Part shown: positions 14,041 to 34,033 of the stretch, piece by piece
Numbering within the stretch: position 1 is the stretch's first letter
Layout: every line of letters begins with the position of its first letter
Virus record (IMG/VR): IMGVR_UViG_2645727970_000011
Location: 1-35,266 of that record
Origin: a virus
Lineage: Duplodnaviria > Heunggongvirae > Uroviricota > Caudoviricetes
Reading direction: 5' to 3' (one strand)
Length of the DNA: 35,266 nucleotides
The notes under the pieces: model-generated
What the model saw: only the letters and a program-made list of their open reading frames with translations
Told to the model about the DNA's origin: nothing
Databases searched by the model: none
Program-made: the position numbers and the translations under genes

Positions 14041-14538
14041 ATGAAATCATTAACCCTCTTCAATCAACCAATTCGTATCGGTGAAGATGGCATGATCTGC
14101 CTCACTGATATGTGGAAAGCCAGTGGTAAAAGTGAATCTGAATCGCCTTACCACTACCTGCGAAACAAGCAGACCAAAGAGTTCTTAGCCGAGCTGGAGA
14201 AAAACCACGAATCTGTGGTTTTTACTGAGCGCGGTGTACACGGTGGAACATATGGCGGGAAGTTTGTTGCTTACGATTATGCGGCTTGGTTAAACCCCGG
14301 GTTCAAGTACGCGGCCTATAAAGTCCTCGATGACTACTTCACCGGAGAACTTCAGCATCGCAACAGCTTAAGTGCGCAGCTCAACATGAAATGTCATGAG
14401 TTTGACCAGAAGAAAGACATGGCGAGCTTCTGCGGACAAGGGCTGGCAGCATGGCGCTATACGAAGCCAGTGTTGGTCGCTGAGATTAACTCCCTGGCTA
14501 ACCAGCTGCAGATTACGATCCCCGGGCTTCCGGGATGA
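14041..14538 (+). CDS. KilA-N domain DNA-binding protein (165 aa)
   Basis: N-terminal region IRIGEDGMICLTDMWKASGKSESESPYHYLRNKQTKEFLAEL fits the KilA-N pattern as I recall it. Confidence 0.6.
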   Translation: MKSLTLFNQPIRIGEDGMICLTDMWKASGKSESESPYHYLRNKQTKEFLAELEKNHESVVFTERGVHGGTYGGKFVAYDYAAWLNPGFKYAAYKVLDDYFTGELQHRNSLSAQLNMKCHEFDQKKDMASFCGQGLAAWRYTKPVLVAEINSLANQLQITIPGLPG

Positions 14539-25806: not shown

Positions 25807-27138
25807 ATGGCTACGTGGCAACAGGGTATTAATTCTGGTGGTTTTCTGGCTGGCATCGGTACGCAAAATGAGAATGCGCCAAAGGCAAGCGACATTAACG
25901 CAACGCTTGGTCTGATCCGCGAAAACAATGAACTGGCTCGCTCAGGTGCAAATAACGTTGGCCTGACCGCGTTACGTGGTCTGGCTGGAGTTGCTGATAT
26001 TTACAATCAGGAACAGCAACAGAAAGCGATTAGTGCATTCAATAAGGTTCACGCTGATGCATGGGCTTCTGGTGATCCATCGGGACTATTTAAGTTTGCC
26101 CAGGAAAATCCAGCGTTTGTTGCACAGGCACAACAGGCGTTTTCCGGTCTTAATGAGCAGCAACGCAACGATATGGGCGATTTAGCCATGAGGGCTAACG
26201 TCGCTCTTTCTCAGGGACCGGAAGCCTACAGTAAATTCATTACTGACAACAAGGACAGGTTAAATCGCGTTGGTGCTAATGCTGACTGGATGATTCAGAC
26301 AGGTATCCAGAATCCAGAGCAGCTATCACACATGCTGACTACTATGACGCTAGGGGCTGTTGGTCCGGATAAAATGCTGGATTATCAGGATAAGATGGTT
26401 GGTCGCCAACTTGAGAAAGGGAGATTGGATGAAAGCATCCGTCAGGCTGACATGGAGAACGCGAGAGGATGGGCAAATATCCAAAACGCTCAACTAGACA
26501 GGGCTCAGCGGGCACAAATGCATAATGATAACGTAGCCCTGAAGTTGCAGGAATTAGGGATGAAACAACAGGAAAGCGGAAAGATTGACCCAAAACTTGT
26601 TCGAGATCTGAATAGTGATATTAATGGGTTCTCAAAGAATTATTCTGCAATGCGCAGTGCTTCTGACAACCTACAAGCCCTTGGGAAGCGCAACACTCCA
26701 GCCGCGCAGTTGGGAATGATTTTCAACTATATGAAATCGTTGGATCCGCAATCTGTGGTACGCGAAGGTGAGCAAGTGCAGGTAAAACGCACTGATGGAA
26801 TATTCGGCACACTTGGTAACTATGTTAGCCAATTATCTAACGGCAAGATGCTGAATAATGAGCAAGTCCAGGACTTAATCAACACCTCAAAACTGATGGC
26901 AAATACTGAAGGCGAAAAGTTTAACCAGCAAATGGATGATTATCTTTCAACTTATGGAGATTCTCTCCCCAGCGGACTAACTAAGCAATTGCAATCCAGA
27001 AAAGCCAAGCTGTATGAAGATATTCAGCAGCCTGCGCAACAACAGAGCAATAACCAACAACCGACAGATACCCAACAGCAGCAGAGTCAATCCGGATCAT
27101 ATACCTCAAAATCAGGCATTCAATTTACGGTGGAATGA
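25807..27138 (+). CDS. Ejection protein, gp20-like (443 aa)
   Basis: Synteny and size; Gln-rich C-terminus. Confidence 0.65.
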
Positions 27139-29261
27139 TGAAAGTAACTGCAAACGGAAAGACATTTACCTTCCCTGATGGTACGAGCACGGAAGATATT
27201 GGCACCGCCATTGATGAGTATTTTGCTGGTCAGGCTGTTCAGCAACAAACAGTTAATCAGGCCAATAATGAACCAGCACGTGAAGAACCATCATTGATGC
27301 AACAAGCTGGCGATTGGTTCACTGGTGGTCAAAGTGCAGGGCAAATTGCAGAACAGGCTGGTCGTGGTCTGGTAAACATACCATTTGACGTATTGCAGGG
27401 TGGCGCAAGTCTGATTAATGCAATCAGTCAGGGGCTTGGTGGGCCCAAGGTTTTGGATGATGTCTATCGTCCAGTCGATCGACCGACAGACCCTTACGCG
27501 CAAGCCGGTGAAACAATTGGTGGGTATCTCCTGCCAATTGGCACAGCGGCAAAAGCTGCTGGAGCGCCAGCAAAGCTCGCTGGAGATATCGGTTCCGCAG
27601 GAAACATGATTGCAGGTTCTCTTGCTGATGCTGCAAATCAGGAGGGCGATTTTGCACAAAATGCCGCCATTAACGGTGGTATCAATATTGGTGCTCAAGG
27701 CGTTCTTTCAGGTGTTGGGCGCGTTATTGCGCCAAGGGTTTCACAGGCTCTTGGTGGTGCAGCACTGAATTCTGCTAATGATGTTTCCAGGATGGCAAAG
27801 TCAGGTGCTGGGCGTCAGTCAATTGCCAGTCAGGCCGCTAATGTGTCCGAAGATGTAGCAAAAGCGGCTGAGTCTGCTGGAGTTGATATAAACGCATTAA
27901 CACCAGGAATGCGATCTGGAAGTCGTGGAATTGCACAAGCCGAAGGCGCATTGGCATCAACACCAGGAATTGTTCAGGATGCCCATCAGGCAGCATTTAA
28001 CGAAATATCATCAAAGTTAAGTCGAAACCTTGATGAATTTGGGGCCGCATCTGGAACGGCATCAGAAAAAAGTGCGGCTATAAAACAAAGGATTCTTCAA
28101 AATCTTGATCAGATGAAGGATGCTGAGCGCGCGGCATGGGATGACGTGCGGTCAACAATGCCAAATCAAAAAGCAAGAATGCTAAATGGTAATGCCGTTA
28201 TTCAGGCAGAGCGATCTGCTGGCATACCGCTTACTCCTGAAATGAAACAGTTTGTTCAGGCAAACAATCAAGGTGGAGTAACATTTGATGGCATGAAAGC
28301 ATGGAGAGCGAAATTTGCTGATGCGGAGCAAAAATATAAGCGTAGCGGAGAGGCAAATGCGGCAAGGAGAGCAGGGGAAATACGTCGGGCAATTACTGAT
28401 GATATGCGCACAATGGCGGAAAACGGCGGATTTTTTGATGACTGGCAAAAAGCTAATGATCTGTCTAAAGCGAGGCTATCCGCACAAGAGAGTGCAGAAT
28501 CTGTTTTTGGGCGTGATTTGGCAACAGATGCACTGATTACGAATGGAGTAAAATCTCTTCAATCATCGTCAGCTAAAGGTCTTAATGGTCCTGCTGGATT
28601 CCATTCTATGATCCGCGCGCTGCCAGAATCAGAGCGTGTTCCTGCTATATCATCAATGTTGCAGGATGCTATCTCGCATGGTGTACGTGGCGGCAAATCT
28701 GATGCAGCAGGAATTAACCATATCGCAGGGATACTTACCCCACAAAATGTAAAAGCCATTAGCAGATATTCCTCAGAACTCGGAAGAATTGCTGATGCAT
28801 ATGGCACTCTTGCAAGAGCAGCAGTGAAACCTCAGCAGTATATTGAAAGAACAGGGAGAACTGCCAATGTACTACGCGATCTGGATGCTGGTTTATCCAA
28901 CGTCACATCAACAGTGTTAAATGCAATTGCCAACTCAACATCAGGTGCCATTGTTGGTGGCGCTGGAGGGGGCATTGCAGGCGCTGCCGCGGGTGCTTTA
29001 GTTGGCGCTGGGTTAAAAGGAGCTGTATCTAAAATTGCCACCACACGTAGTGGTCGATATGCGATAGAGAAAGCTGTTCAGGAAGCCACCAAAGCAGTAA
29101 GAGCAGGCGGAAGCAAAGAAGCTTTAGCGGCGGCGGAACGCAGATTTATGGCAAATAAGGCCGCCGTAAAAGCAATACGTGATACAGTCGGAAACGAAGA
29201 GTTTCAGCGCTTAGCGAGGGCCGGTATTGTGGCATCGCTAAGCGGAATGGCACAGGAGTAA
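27135..29261 (+). CDS. Ejection protein, gp16-like (708 aa)
   Basis: Synteny and size; last gene of the rightward late operon before the leftward cargo genes. Confidence 0.65.
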
Positions 29262-29594
29262 TTAATCATCCATGGATGGATTGAGCTTATCTCGTGTTGA
29301 TGTGGCGGTTTTCCCTACATTCCTAAGCCAAGCTTTCAAATCCTTGATATTGTCATTGATTTCATGAATATCTTCTTTTTTTAATCTGTCAATATTATTT
29401 TCAATAATTTCAATGGATTGCTCAATATCAGATATAGTGAATGATAGTTTGCTCTTCTCATCTGTTATTGAGTTTTTAAGTGCTTCGTTCTCAGTCTTGA
29501 GGTCAGATATCTTTTGCTTTAAAGATGCCAGTTGGCACTGAACCACAATGAGTGCGATAGCTATCACGACAAATGTTGTATACACGCTAACCAC
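29262..29594 (-). CDS. Small membrane-anchored coiled-coil protein: N-terminal transmembrane helix then coiled coil (107-110 aa)
   Basis: Track ORF starts at GTG 29594; a second GTG at 29585 has an AAGGTGG SD 5 nt upstream; hydrophobic N-terminus YTTFVVIAIALIVVQ then heptad-rich segment; AT-rich. Confidence 0.6.
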   Translation of the reverse strand: MVSVYTTFVVIAIALIVVQCQLASLKQKISDLKTENEALKNSITDEKSKLSFTISDIEQSIEIIENNIDRLKKEDIHEINDNIKDLKAWLRNVGKTATSTRDKLNPSMDD

Positions 29595-29605
29595 CTTGGT
29601 TTTAT

Positions 29606-29854
29606 CTACTTGAGGACTAATCCGTTAAGTGCATCAAGGATTTTAGATACGTAACTACCGAAAATGTAGGTGCAAAAAGCAAAAACAACCGTGACGACAG
29701 CACCGATAGCCTTAATGGTTGTTTTCATTGTGGTGATACTAGTTTCAATACTGCTAAGCCTGGTGTCAATTGACTTCACGTCTTTTTGAATGATTTCAAT
29801 GTCACGCTTGATATAGCTGACATCAGACTCTAACTTTGCGACCCTTGATTCCAT
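29606..29854 (-). CDS. Small tail-anchored coiled-coil protein, XhlA-like architecture (82 aa)
   Basis: ATG at 29854 has an AAGGAGG SD 7 nt upstream, whereas the longer track ORF start at 29959 has none; coiled coil (VAKLESDVSYIKRDIEIIQKDVKSIDTRLSSIETSITTMK) followed by C-terminal transmembrane helix AIGAVVTVVFAFCTYIFGSYV. Confidence 0.6.
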   Translation of the reverse strand: MESRVAKLESDVSYIKRDIEIIQKDVKSIDTRLSSIETSITTMKTTIKAIGAVVTVVFAFCTYIFGSYVSKILDALNGLVLK

Positions 29855-29951
29855 GCCATCGCCTCCTTCGCCTCCAGACCTGTTCTTATCCTTTGTGTTC
29901 TCAGGATGGATACGAGATATGTTTTTTTCACTAATTGATGTTTCAATTATA

Positions 29952-30362
29952 TCAAGCATCTTTCACATGACTCACGGAAAAGTAGGCTTGCGCAGAATGC
30001 ACTAGAGTGTTGTCTTTGCTGATGGATACTCGAATTAAGTAATCCCCGTCAGCATCAAGTTTGCATTTATCGAAATGCATAGACATCGATGTTGCCAAGG
30101 TGTTCCTGATCTCATTGTGTCCTTTTGCCTTAATCCACACGCCTTTATCACCGCTTACACTGATTTCTAACTCATTCTCGATTCTATAGAGACAAGCTGA
30201 AACCCAATATGGTGTATCATGAATTAAACCGAGAAAGTGAACCTGAAAATCAAGGTCAGTAGTCACAGGTAACTCATCTGTCTCCATGATTAACATGGGT
30301 GATTTTTCATCATTTTCAGACTTATGGTAAGGAAAAAGGAATGCTATTTTTTCAGTGTTCAT
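29952..30362 (-). CDS. Hypothetical soluble protein (136 aa), first cargo gene downstream of mnt
   Basis: ATG overlaps the mnt stop (ATGA); AT-rich; no recognised family. Confidence 0.6.
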   Translation of the reverse strand: MNTEKIAFLFPYHKSENDEKSPMLIMETDELPVTTDLDFQVHFLGLIHDTPYWVSACLYRIENELEISVSGDKGVWIKAKGHNEIRNTLATSMSMHFDKCKLDADGDYLIRVSISKDNTLVHSAQAYFSVSHVKDA

Positions 30363-30601
30363 TTCCCATCCCTTAAACGTTTAAGTACATTGATGGTTAC
30401 ATCAAGAGCCTCTTGCTCTGACTTTGCCAGTTGCTGACTGCTTGATGGTATAACCTGCTCTTTATGCATTTTTATCCACAACTGGATAGCAGCAATAATC
30501 TCAGCATTGATAGAGCGTCGATTAGTGGCAGCAATATGCGTAAGTTGCTGTTTTATCTCATCTGGCATTCTTACGTTGAATTGCGGATCATTTCTAGCCA
30601 C
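30359..30601 (-). CDS. mnt: Mnt-like ribbon-helix-helix repressor (80 aa)
   Basis: GTG start with AGGAG SD 6 nt upstream; N-terminus MARNDPQFNVRMPDEIKQQL ... NRRSINAEIIAAIQ resembles P22 Mnt as I recall it; divergent from arc. Confidence 0.75.
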   Translation of the reverse strand: MARNDPQFNVRMPDEIKQQLTHIAATNRRSINAEIIAAIQLWIKMHKEQVIPSSSQQLAKSEQEALDVTINVLKRLRDGK

Positions 30602-30694
30602 GTCATTCTCCTTTTATTTATTGACATGCTAGAACGGTAGTAGTACGCTTTCAATAGTAGTACGGTGCTATCATTTAATGAAATGGAGTTGAAT
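30602..30694. promoter_or_regulatory. immI control region: Pant-like promoter with Arc-operator-like sequence and tandem direct repeats
   Basis: TTGACA (30621..30626) followed by ATGCTAGAAC, resembling the P22 Pant -35 and Oarc left half; direct repeat TAGTAGTACG at 30641..30650 and 30658..30667; sequence ATAGTAGTACGGTGCTATCAT at 30654..30674; GGAG SD before arc. Confidence 0.55.
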
Positions 30695-30856
30695 ATGCAA
30701 GGTGCAAGAAAAATGCCGCAGTTCAATTTGCGGTGGCCTAAAGAAGTATTGGATTTGGTACGCAAGGTGGCGGAAGAGAATGGTAGGTCTGTTAATTCTG
30801 AGATTTATCAGCGAGTAATGGAAAGCTTTAAGAAGGAAGGGCGCATTGGTGCGTAA
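30695..30856 (+). CDS. arc: Arc repressor (53 aa)
   Basis: [53 protein letters not shown] is near-identical to P22 Arc as I recall it; ATG at 30695 (track ORF starts at an upstream GTG). Confidence 0.9.
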
Positions 30857-30924
30857 AGTTGAAGCCCCAACTGCGGGAACAGTCAGGGCTTCGGTATCAA
30901 CAAATCGGATTAGGAAATATTGAC

Positions 30925-31803
30925 ATGAAAAGTATAGCAAAGGCACAAAACGATTTCACCATCTTCAAATTCGGCGACAGTGAAATCCGCGTCATCAACA
31001 AATGCGGTGAGCCGTGGTTTGTAGCAAAAGATGTTTGTGATGCTTTAACCCTGACTAACTCACGCAAGGCGCTTACTGCACTTGATGACGATGAAAAGGG
31101 AGTAACTTTAAGTTACACCCTTGGTGGTGAGCAGAATCTAAGCATTGTTAGCGAATCAGGTATGTATACATTGGTTCTGCGCTGCCGCGATGCTGTCAAT
31201 AAAGGTTCATTACCGCACAAATTCCGCAAGTGGGTAACAGCAGAAGTTCTGCCTTCAATTCGCAAACATGGCGAGTATGTGAAAGGCAAGAAAACCACTG
31301 TTGAGGAAAGAACACCGCTACGAGATGCAGTAAACATGCTGGTAGGAAAGAAAGGACTTCGCTATGACGATGCATACAATATGGTTCATCAGCGTTTTGG
31401 TATTGACAGCATTGATGAACTTTCAATTGAACAAATCCCGCTGGCCGTAGAGTACATCCACAGGGTAGTGCTTGAAGGTGAATTCATCGGAAAACAAGAG
31501 AAGAAAACCAACGAGCTTTCTGCAAAAGAAGCAAACAGTCTTGTATGGTTATGGGATTATGCCAACCGCTCACAGGCATTATTCCGCGAACTGTATCCGG
31601 CATTAAAACAAATTCAATCGAACTATTCCGGCAGATGCTACGACTATGGTCATGAGTTCTCGTATGTTATCGGAATGGCGAGAGACGTTTTAATCAATCA
31701 CACACGAGATGTTGATATCAATGAGCCAGACGGACCAACGAATCTTTCCGCATGGATGAGACTTAAGAATAAAGAATTACCTCCTTCAGTACATAACTAC
31801 TGA
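30925..31803 (+). CDS. ant: Antirepressor Ant with Bro-N/AntA-type N-terminal domain (~292 aa)
   Basis: ATG at 30925 with AGGA SD (track ORF starts at TTG 30859); N-terminal [30 protein letters not shown] is a Bro-N/AntA-type signature; position after arc as in P22. Confidence 0.75.
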
Positions 31804-31903: not shown

Positions 31904-34033
31904 ATGACAGACATTACAGCCAATGTGATCGTATCAATGCCTTCGCAACTCTTCACTATGGCACGTTCTTTTAAAGCCGTAGCCAATGGTAAAATTTATA
32001 TCGGAAAAATTGACACTGATCCGGTAAATCCTGAAAACCGGATTCAGGTTTATGTGGAGAACGAAGATGGTTCTCACGTTCCTGTTTCGCAACCAATCAT
32101 CATTAACGCTGCCGGATATCCGGTATATAACGGACAGATTGCCAAATTCGTTACCGTGCAAGGCCATTCTATGGCTGTTTATGATGCATATGGTGCGCAG
32201 CAGTTTTATTTTCCTAATGTGTTGAAGTATGATCCTGATCAGTTTAGTTTGAAGCTATCCATGCCTGATGGGGCAGGTGAAATTGGATATCAATATAGAA
32301 ATAATGTTACATCTTCTTACCGAAGAGTAAACGACAAGCTTGATGAGCATGTCAGTATTCTGGATTTTCATAGAAATGTTGATGGTGGGTTAATCCTTCC
32401 TGCACAGAATGTTGATAGTAGACCATTCTTTGAGCGAGCACTTGTATACATTGAATCAATAGGCGGTGGCACTATTTATGTACCGGCTGGAAAATACTAT
32501 TTAAATTCATACAGTGAAATAGGGATCATAGGCACTGTCTTTAATGCAATATTGCCACTTTGCGATAATGTTAAAATTTTATTGGATACAGCGGCAGAAA
32601 TAGTTGTTGGTACTTTTTTTGATGACAAGCCTTTCCAGTTGTTTTTTGGTTCTTCGCCTTTGAAACCAAATCTTGTAGACGCTGTAAATAATGTTGTCAT
32701 AGAAGGTGGTACAATTAGCTTTAGTGGTTATAGCAGTATGATGAGAACAGCACCACTAAACAGAATTGCATTGCAGACAGGAAATATAGATAATCTTCGC
32801 ATATCAAATGTTACCTTTCGTGATGGTGACTTAACAAACGCTTTAGCGATAGGATACAAAAATCTAGGCAAATATGCAGTTGTTGAGAATTGCAACTTTA
32901 TTGACCTTATTCAGAACGGAATGAATAACGATCATAGTAGTATCTACCTTAATGCGTCATACTCTACAATTAATAATTGCAACTTTATTTCCACGATAGA
33001 TAAAGGAAGGAAGATCGCTTGTGCTGTTGAGTTGCATAAATCTTTCAATAGTTGGATTGGTGGTAATGTTGATGGCTATACACGTGGTGCTTTTATAAAC
33101 GCTATTGATACTGAATCATCTCTTGTAGAAAACACCAGAATTGAATCAGTTACCGCTAGAATACTACACCAGTTTGTAGCGTACTCGTTCGGTTCTAATG
33201 GGGTTATAAGAAATAGTCTTGTTTCAGGAAATAATGTAACAACTCTTGCGAGAAGTTCATCCGATACAGATCCTTCAGAATTTGGACCTTGCAGTCTCTG
33301 CGGTTGGGTGTCATATGGTAGTTTTGCAAATGCAGAAGGCCTAAATATCGTAGTTGAAAATAATACATACATTGTTGATGAATCAGTACAAGATTCATAT
33401 AGTTGCGTATTTTATGCAATCGCAAATGTTTCAGGTGTTACTGTTCGTAGAAACAGTGTTGGAGCGAGAACTTTTTTCTACAACCCAACCCCATCACTAA
33501 ATCTTTACAATTGCCATTTTTATGAAAACAGGTTTGAGGAATCGTATGTACAGAGCGGTTCAGAAAGATTTTTATATGATCTTAACTGTAATCGTATTTC
33601 TCAAAGCACTTTCGAAGCATTTGTTCCAATAAAAACAACTGCACTGACAGGAGTTATGAGGATTGACCCATCTACGCTCGGTCCGCAGAATCGTTTTGTT
33701 GTCGATACTCAGAATACAGATAATATTGAACACCCATTTATTACAAATTTGCCAGGTTTGCTCGGGCAGGATGGTACAACTTACTCATATCCGCAAAAAT
33801 GCGATGTCAACATCGGAGTTGGTTCTACACCTGTCCTATCTGTGATAAGTCCGGAAATAAGCACTGTAGACAGAGGACAGATTCTTAACAACGCGAACCT
33901 TCCATCTGGTTATGTCGCTCCGTCGTCGTTAATGAAGTACGATTCTACGCTTACAGGAGCTGGTGTCACAGTATCAGGGACGCCATCCGGTAATTATCAT
34001 GACGTGAGGATTCTACTGATAAGAGAACGTTAG
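31904..34033 (+). CDS. Tailspike: P22/HK620-type head-binding N-terminal domain plus divergent receptor-binding domain (709 aa)
   Basis: N-terminal ~115 aa ([64 protein letters not shown]...VLKYDPDQF) match the conserved tailspike head-binding domain from memory; the remainder is AT-rich and unrelated to the P22 sequence I recall. Confidence 0.85.

Follow-up and report, generated by a model that had tools for sequence, protein, structure and literature searches.

Which operators does the immI region of this P22-like genome carry, and which repressor reads which of them? Arc and Mnt serve in textbooks as models of how a beta-sheet recognizes DNA, and their specificity has been studied mostly through engineered mutants and hybrids. 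In the window (the whole stretch of 35,266 nucleotides that was analyzed) a sequence-only reading had pointed to an altered control region between a diverged mnt-like gene and arc, and had suggested that the Mnt operator was re-specified. Our analysis makes it fairly probable (roughly 70%) that the locus is a complete P22-type immI that would keep the wiring of P22 but use a different operator class, with one element (O2) serving the Mnt-like protein and another (O1) serving Arc.

The window derives from a P22-like (Lederbergvirus-type) phage or prophage of E. coli, with morphogenetic genes that are about 95% identical to those of CUS-3 and Kapi1. A complete immI-type module is flanked by the DNA-transfer gene (27135-29261) on one side and the tailspike gene (starting at 31904) on the other, and its anatomy can be observed directly. 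On the minus strand an open reading frame with a GTG start (30359..30601) encodes the Mnt-like protein of 80 aa, (M)ARNDPQFNVRMP..., which consists of an RHH domain and a long C-terminal helix. The divergent operon on the plus strand comprises arc (open reading frame 30695..30856; Pfam PF03869, E 8e-31) and ant (open reading frame 30925..31803), the latter encoding an antirepressor with Bro-N and P22_AR_C domains. Arc is a 53-aa RHH protein with strand PQFNLRWP, and both repressors fall in PF03869, the Arc/RHH family (E 4.8e-13 for the Mnt-like protein). The arc-ant junction is spanned by the sar antisense RNA (30857..30923, minus strand; Rfam RF00262, 71.6 bits against a gathering score of 43, E 2.5e-14). 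For this RNA the promoter scan yields a promoter-like site GTGAAA-17-TATACT at 30959-30931 on the same strand, and both features take the positions of P22 sar and Psar. The mnt/arc divergent control region of 93 bp (30602..30694) is collinear with positions 14771-14860 of P22 (BK000583), where Pant, Pmnt, Oarc and Omnt are annotated. Judged by position, its promoters overlap face to face; one operator site falls within the Pant spacer and the other on the start of Pant.

Behind mnt, and pointing the same way, lie three small open reading frames on the minus strand (window 29262-30362), which Pmnt probably transcribes together with mnt in the lysogen. The one at 29952-30362 encodes 136 aa and belongs to PHROG 5893, without a Pfam match; that at 29606-29959 encodes 117 aa with a coiled coil, a C-terminal TM segment and a weak XhlA-like match; that at 29262-29594 encodes 110 aa with an N-terminal TM segment and a coiled coil. 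They are candidates for prophage-expressed membrane proteins, possibly with a role in exclusion or defence.

The Pant-equivalent promoter (30621..30649, plus strand) has its -35 TTGACA at 30621-26 and, after a 17-bp spacer, its -10 TACGCT at 30644-49. It was assigned by positional homology to the annotated P22 Pant (TTGACA-17-TATATT) and is left unflagged in a consensus promoter scan because its -10 matches at three of six positions only; this -10 is kept in Enterobacterales and Aeromonas relatives. Transcription from it would start near 30656, inside O2, and that from Pmnt is predicted to start near 30619 on the minus strand. The Pmnt-equivalent promoter (30626..30654, minus strand; -35 TTGAAA at 30654-49, 17-bp spacer, -10 TAGCAT at 30631-26) scores 9/12 in the promoter scan and has the same position as the annotated P22 Pmnt. 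Written from the Pant -35 onwards, P22 reads TTGACA, spacer TGATAGAAGCACTCTAC, -10 TATATT, linker CTCAATA and Mnt-position operator GGTCCACGGTGGACC, against TTGACA, spacer TGCTAGAACGGTAGTAG, -10 TACGCT, linker TTCAATA and operator GTAGTACGGTGCTAT in the window. As had been stated before, the Pant -35 and the adjacent left half of the operator are conserved: TTGACATGCTAGAA (30621-34) agrees with P22 TTGACATGATAGAA at 13 of 14 positions. The centres of the two elements, G30636 for O1 and G30664 for O2, are 28 bp apart, which is the distance between the P22 operator centres. The Shine-Dalgarno sequence of arc, GGAG, is at 30685-88, ahead of the ATG at 30695.

Two repeated elements had been described in this region and both are present. 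The 10-bp direct repeat TAGTAGTACG occurs on the plus strand at 30638-30647 and 30655-30664, with a gap of 7 bp (17 bp from start to start), and the 21-mer ATAGTAGTACGGTGCTATCAT is found at 30654-30674, 10 bp before GGAG. The description of the decamers as added tandem repeats does not hold, however: the copies are not tandem, and from the -35 through the Omnt position the alignment with P22 contains no indels at all, which rules out an inserted tandem repeat. Compared to P22, bases of the 93-bp region were substituted in place and nothing was inserted. The first copy covers the right part of O1 and takes in TACG, with which the Pant -10 opens; the second covers the left arm and centre of O2. 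The decamer is repeated because the right subsite of O1 and the left arm of O2 carry the same TAGTAC-G half-site, and the two copies are half-site-like elements of two different putative operators.

It is very unlikely that the repeat is incidental (a product of chance or a remnant of replication slippage) or is bound by a third factor. In relatives, conservation is limited to the 7-mer core TAGTACG of each decamer, while copy 1 may begin with TAG, TGG, TGA or TAA; in that sense the identity over 10 bp in this lineage is partly incidental. TAGTACG is also found three more times elsewhere in the window. Against this, both copies fall on conserved operator or promoter positions collinear with P22, and their cores persist in relatives from Escherichia to Yersinia and Raoultella. 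A direct repeat of at least 10 bp is also rare by chance (40 of 5000 mononucleotide shuffles of this 95-bp stretch), and the module encodes no third regulator.

O2 (ATAGTAGTAC-G-GTGCTATCAT, 30654..30674) takes the P22 Omnt position column for column, with its centre at G30664. The AC-G-GT centre of P22 Omnt is retained and the arms TAGTAC/TAGCAC replace GGTCCAC. The P22 Omnt palindrome itself is absent, in agreement with the sequence-only reading: GGTCCACGGTGGACC occurs neither in the control region nor elsewhere in the window. An intact or degenerate copy was also sought with a mismatch-tolerant search of the whole window (GGTCCAC-G-GTGGACC, up to 3 mismatches); the single match, at 14235, is unrelated and at chance level. 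An exact match to TAGYACSGTRCTA is found in the 35 kb at O2 only, and the sole other match to the O2-type palindrome is O1, with 2 mismatches. In Emek, Pectobacterium and Aeromonas relatives the position of O2 is taken by the perfect palindrome TAGTAC-G-GTACTA.

The main evidence for O2 as operator of the Mnt-like protein is comparative. Loci were gathered from encoding contigs, GTDB genomes, IMG/VR, phage records and E. coli genomes; the scan of GTDB representative genomes brought up few P22-like loci, its matches being for the most part distant RHH relatives, and IMG/VR was more productive. Clustered at 90% identity, the clade of Mnt-like proteins with strand PQFNVRMP forms 62 clusters, with members in Escherichia, Salmonella, Citrobacter, Enterobacter, Serratia, Pectobacterium, Yersinia and Raoultella. 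A TA(G/T)(T/C)AC-centre-inverted palindrome is present at the O2 position in all 24 distinct control regions before PQFNVRMP proteins, and these span at least eight genera (Escherichia, Salmonella, Pectobacterium, Yersinia, Raoultella, Serratia, Brenneria and Aeromonas). The palindrome is kept when the partner has a non-Arc strand, namely PPTSIRLP in Aeromonas, PQTNLRIP in Brenneria and KTSTIRLP in locus L055. In Serratia loci without arc or ant the O2 position keeps GTATTAC-G-GTGATAC and O1 is gone. Judged from this directly observed co-occurrence of protein and palindrome, O2 is very probably a re-specified operator of the resident Mnt-like protein. The earlier suggestion therefore survives in its core, for which the Omnt position, the AC-G-GT centre and the co-occurrence with PQFNVRMP in at least eight genera, with and without Arc, all argue; it had overlooked the change in the recognition strand and the remodelled right half of the Arc operator, and had misread the decamers as a tandem insertion.

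On similarity alone one might exchange the two assignments, with Arc on an Oarc-like O2 and the Mnt-like protein on O1. When compared to the reverse complement of P22 Oarc, O2 agrees at 16 of 21 positions and is identical in the outer 7 bp on each side; O1 agrees with P22 Oarc at only 12 of 21. Such an exchange is nevertheless highly improbable, as O2-type palindromes accompany a PQFNVRMP Mnt where there is no Arc-type protein (Serratia, Aeromonas, Brenneria and L055), no Arc-bearing locus departs from the Arc-like left subsite of O1, and O2 carries the Mnt-family centre at the Omnt position. What the resemblance does suggest is that Arc, with its beta-strand unchanged, may bind O2 as well as, or instead of, O1.

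The Mnt-like protein itself has changed as well. Among solved structures, Mnt comes closest to it (1MNT, E 2.5e-6), with Arc ranking behind. The sequence-only reading had placed its divergence from P22 Mnt outside the N-terminal DNA-binding region; indeed the two proteins cannot be aligned past residue 40, but the DNA-binding region is altered too. Over residues 1-40, the only part that can be aligned, identity is 48%, and the recognition strand (ARNDPQFNVRMP against ARDDPHFNFRMP in P22) contains D3N, H6Q and F9V, giving PQFNVRMP instead of PHFNFRMP. The recognition residues of Mnt, which we take to be Arg2, His6, Asn8 and Arg10 after the work of Knight and Sauer in 1992, are kept with the exception of residue 6, which is Gln here. 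PQFNVRMP displays Q-N-R (Q6-N8-R10), the same three outward residues as PQFNLRWP of Arc (Q9-N11-R13). An AF2 monomer model, informative on domain layout only, places helices at 14-26, 31-50 and 53-79; the last of these has a pLDDT of 56-74 and no sequence alignment to the C-terminus of Mnt, a family in which the RHH domain is followed by a tetramer-forming C-terminal helix. Arc is, as claimed, nearly identical to its P22 counterpart (49/53 residues or 92%, with an identical beta-strand), the only differences being K2Q, M4A and S5R in the N-terminal arm and R16K.

Other Mnt clades have different arms within a common CAC-N-GTG architecture: GGTCCAC with strand PHFNFRMP in P22, AGACCAC with PQFNLRLP in phages L, SE1 and Gally, GAACCAC with PQFKLRLP in Pseudomonas, ACGCAC with PHFRLRLP in alphaproteobacteria and ATGGCAC with PKFVLRLP in locus L075. 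That Q6 alone sets the TAG arms can be ruled out, because the Mnt of L, SE1 and Gally also has Q-N-R and yet goes with AGACCAC. Together these loci form a natural co-evolved series, to which P22-like phages contribute at least three Mnt specificity classes and other Proteobacteria further ones. Strand motif and arms change together in a common operator frame, nnnn(C/T)AC-N-GT(G/A)nnnn, which makes a recognition code for this RHH clade testable.

O1 (ATGCTAGAAC-G-GTAGTAGTAC(G), 30626..30647) is situated at the P22 Oarc position, with a left subsite TAGAAC at 30630-35 and a right subsite TAGTAC at 30641-46. Its 12 matches to P22 Oarc (ATGATAGAAGCACTCTACTAT) reflect a left half that is kept and a right half that is replaced; the best match to Oarc is the one at the Omnt position. 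The right half reads AGTAGTAC here, against CTCTACTA in P22. The left half agrees with the P22 Arc half-sites at 8 of 10 positions, the right half at 6-7 of 10 when read direct and at 4 of 10 when read inverted. In the direct reading TAGTAC comes 11 bp after TAGAAC, and the right subsite appears to be read best as a direct, not an inverted, 11-bp repeat. To our knowledge, the documented operator arrangement for Arc is inverted only. Ten distinct control regions that go with a PQFNLRWP Arc were compared: every one of them has TAGAAC as its left subsite, and the variable positions of O1 are confined to two dinucleotides, exactly 11 bp apart. The conservation of TAGTAC in O1 may be inflated by overlap, given that its TAC also begins the Pant -10.

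We infer that the direct repeat corresponds to the right subsite of P22, flipped about the local two-fold axis of the Arc dimer. A symmetric dimer could then occupy it without any change in the geometry of the tetramer. Another RHH protein, ParG, is reported to bind both direct and inverted boxes (PMC3413123). ParG and omega resemble the present case in being symmetric RHH dimers that act cooperatively on boxes of either orientation, and provide a precedent for a direct-repeat O1, although they are other proteins with another spacing. A direct-repeat Arc operator, if true, would extend the known tolerance of the Arc tetramer for the orientation of its subsites.

O1 varies with the partner repressor. 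Besides its loss in Serratia loci without arc, it is altered where the partner repressor differs, and takes further forms with other partners. Among loci with a PQFNLRWP Arc there are two forms, each tied to one N-terminal arm of Arc (MKGMSK or MQGARK); this linkage comes from two linked haplotype classes only and could be due to hitch-hiking. A third type of Arc operator was sought in E. coli prophages with a PQFNLRWP Arc, but the extra loci are all P22-type and two O1 classes remain.

The similarity between both elements also raises the possibility that the operators are shared, with Arc and the Mnt-like protein each binding O1 and O2. The switch would then be closer to an apparently ancestral pair of near-identical palindromes than to the orthogonal operators of P22. 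Several observations fit such cross-binding: the two repressors present the same base-facing residues, all four subsites conform to TAG-N-AC (TAGAAC, TAGTAC, TAGTAC and TAGCAC), O2 resembles P22 Oarc as described above, and besides O2 only O1 matches the O2-type palindrome in the window. O1 can in fact be read as an imperfect Mnt-type palindrome, TAGAAC-G-GTAGTA, and because there are only 2 mismatches the Mnt-like protein may bind O1 too. Furthermore, nearly the same palindrome occurs at both positions, 25-28 bp apart, in Pseudomonas, alphaproteobacterial and other relatives, and the inverted right half of O1 in Aeromonas and L055 is a perfect Mnt-type half-site (TAGTAC or TAGCAC). We still consider shared operators rather unlikely, though a serious possibility. 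Without arc, O1 vanishes whereas O2 stays; the left TAGA of O1 is invariant and its A is never found at that place in O2 arms, which suggests discrimination; and the Q-N-R triad alone does not fix the arms.

A further reading is entertained tentatively, and we regard it too as rather unlikely. O1 may be a composite operator with direct subsites, an arrangement undocumented for Arc, of which the second is an exact TAGTAC-G Mnt half-site, so that Arc and Mnt would compete for it or occupy it together. Since the Q-N-R recognition triad is common to both proteins, they could read overlapping half-sites. If this is true, the lysogenic Mnt and the lytic-phase Arc would be coupled through a shared site, in contrast to the orthogonal operators of P22, and this immI type would show, as a natural intermediate, how two paralogous repressors diverged together with their operators.

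Under the preferred reading, with O2 for the Mnt-like protein and O1 for Arc, regulation would proceed much as in P22. In the lysogen, the Mnt-like protein on O2 (TAGTAC-G-GTGCTA) would cover the presumed Pant start and silence arc-ant while sparing Pmnt. After infection, Arc produced from Pant would bind O1 and, because O1 sits in the Pant spacer and over the Pmnt -10, could repress both promoters; sar would limit the translation of ant. O1 would retain the promoter-distal subsite of Arc (ATGCTAGAA), with the second subsite remodelled to a direct TAGTAC 11 bp downstream, and with this direct subsite the Arc tetramer geometry could be kept. In the aligned sequences, the TAG box of O2 lies at -6 to -4 from the centre, and so does the TAG in the TAGA boxes of Arc.

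Compared to P22 immI, the locus has the same gene order, strands, promoter positions, 17-bp spacers, 28-bp distance between operator centres, sar RNA, Ant, left Arc subsite and AC-G-GT centre at the Mnt position, together with an Arc that is 92% identical. Differences concern the arms at the Mnt position (TAGTAC/TAGCAC against GGTCCAC), the Pant -10 (TACGCT against TATATT), the Mnt-like protein (D3N, H6Q and F9V, unalignable past residue 40) and the arm of Arc (QGAR against KGMS). Arc/Mnt hybrids and specificity mutants at His6 of Mnt were reportedly described by Youderian and colleagues in 1983, by Knight and Sauer in 1989 and by Raumann, Knight and Sauer in 1995, and in the laboratory hybrids the whole N-terminal segment is said to have been exchanged. 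The present pair is alike in that a Mnt scaffold has the Arc residue Gln at the equivalent of His6 and that Arc-type TAG boxes lie at an equal offset from the operator centre. Unlike the engineered hybrids, however, it is natural, widespread and co-evolved with its operator, and the Mnt-type arm (ARND) and the operator centre are kept.

Another natural Mnt specificity class of P22-like phages is found in the mnt-only 'ant morons' of phages L, ST64T, SE1 and Gally (Villafane 2008, PMC2629481; Zaworski 2020, PMC8022706), which combine PQFNLRLP with AAGACCAC-C-GTGGTCTT. These differ from the present locus in having no arc, ant or O1, and in arms that are near those of P22 and not TAG-type. In L, SE1 and Gally (L111, L112 and L114) the palindrome is a perfect one of 17 bp upstream of mnt; this mnt, described as 'poorly conserved', by its appearance looks like an intact autoregulated or orphan repressor and not like a decaying remnant. 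The Gally paper reports no survival phenotype in macrophages for an mnt deletion. Reviews of the 'ant moron' treat gene content and not operators, and a search of the searchable literature, which covered the operator sequences as well as phages Emek and N7, retrieved no description of the TAGTAC-type variant. The locus represents a natural, uncharacterised variant in specificity within a textbook system, and not a new kind of system.

The TAGTAC-type control region is present in about 74-75 of 5426 complete E. coli genomes, against approximately 240 for the P22-type; within the phage collection only Emek, N7 and HZ41 carry it. If the classes are orthogonal, the P22-like prophages of E. coli and Salmonella would fall into separate antirepressor-immunity groups. 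The ant gene of a superinfecting phage would then escape silencing by a resident Mnt of another class, which would affect prophage induction and competition between phages.

One recombinant locus is of interest with respect to orthogonality. In E. coli HNSQ2209 (L006, NZ_CP137737, 994-1488) an Emek-like PQFNVRMP Mnt is joined at its start codon to a P22-type control region and Arc, and the Pant -35 is mutated to TTGGCA; the recombinant occurs in 1 of the 5426 genomes. This pairing would be unexpected if Mnt specificities were fully orthogonal; either a weaker Pant has made up for a mismatch between repressor and operator, or the locus is a sign of cross-recognition. A chimeric Mnt is seen in Salmonella Schwarzengrund (P0048), with an L-type N-terminal domain (GRDDPQFNLRLP) and an Emek-type C-terminal half, which shows recombination between specificity classes within the mnt gene.

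Divergent pairs of Mnt-like and Arc-like RHH genes are also found in Pseudomonas, alphaproteobacteria and others (L018, L068, L019, L020, L075 and L084). Here a TTGAC-type -35 is accompanied by near-identical palindromes in the spacer and just after the -10, again 25-28 bp apart. This two-RHH switch architecture is widespread, and P22 immI looks like a diverged case of it.

A few further observations were made on individual loci. In Serratia contigs L011 and L012 (1300-1743), which have neither arc nor ant, a PQFNVRMP Mnt has its O2-type palindrome beside a TCGACA -35-like hexamer, and about 500 bp from Mnt to the tailspike gene contain no called gene. In E. coli PK8241 (L116) the control region has gained 1 bp and differs at the Pant -10 (TAGTACTACTTTCAAT against TAGTACGCTTTCAAT), which alters both the -10 and the spacing between O1 and O2. 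The GenBank CDS of the mnt homologue in phage N7 (L002, MH717096, 482-730) begins at an internal Met (MPSEIKQQ...) and omits the GTG-initiated ARNDPQFNVR, which is the entire DNA-recognition strand; its start site is probably mis-annotated. Finally, Emek (L003, 985-1206) as well as L117, L118 and L120 contain an extra small open reading frame between arc and ant (73 aa in Emek), and in these four loci the C-terminus of Arc is shorter (...EGITV).
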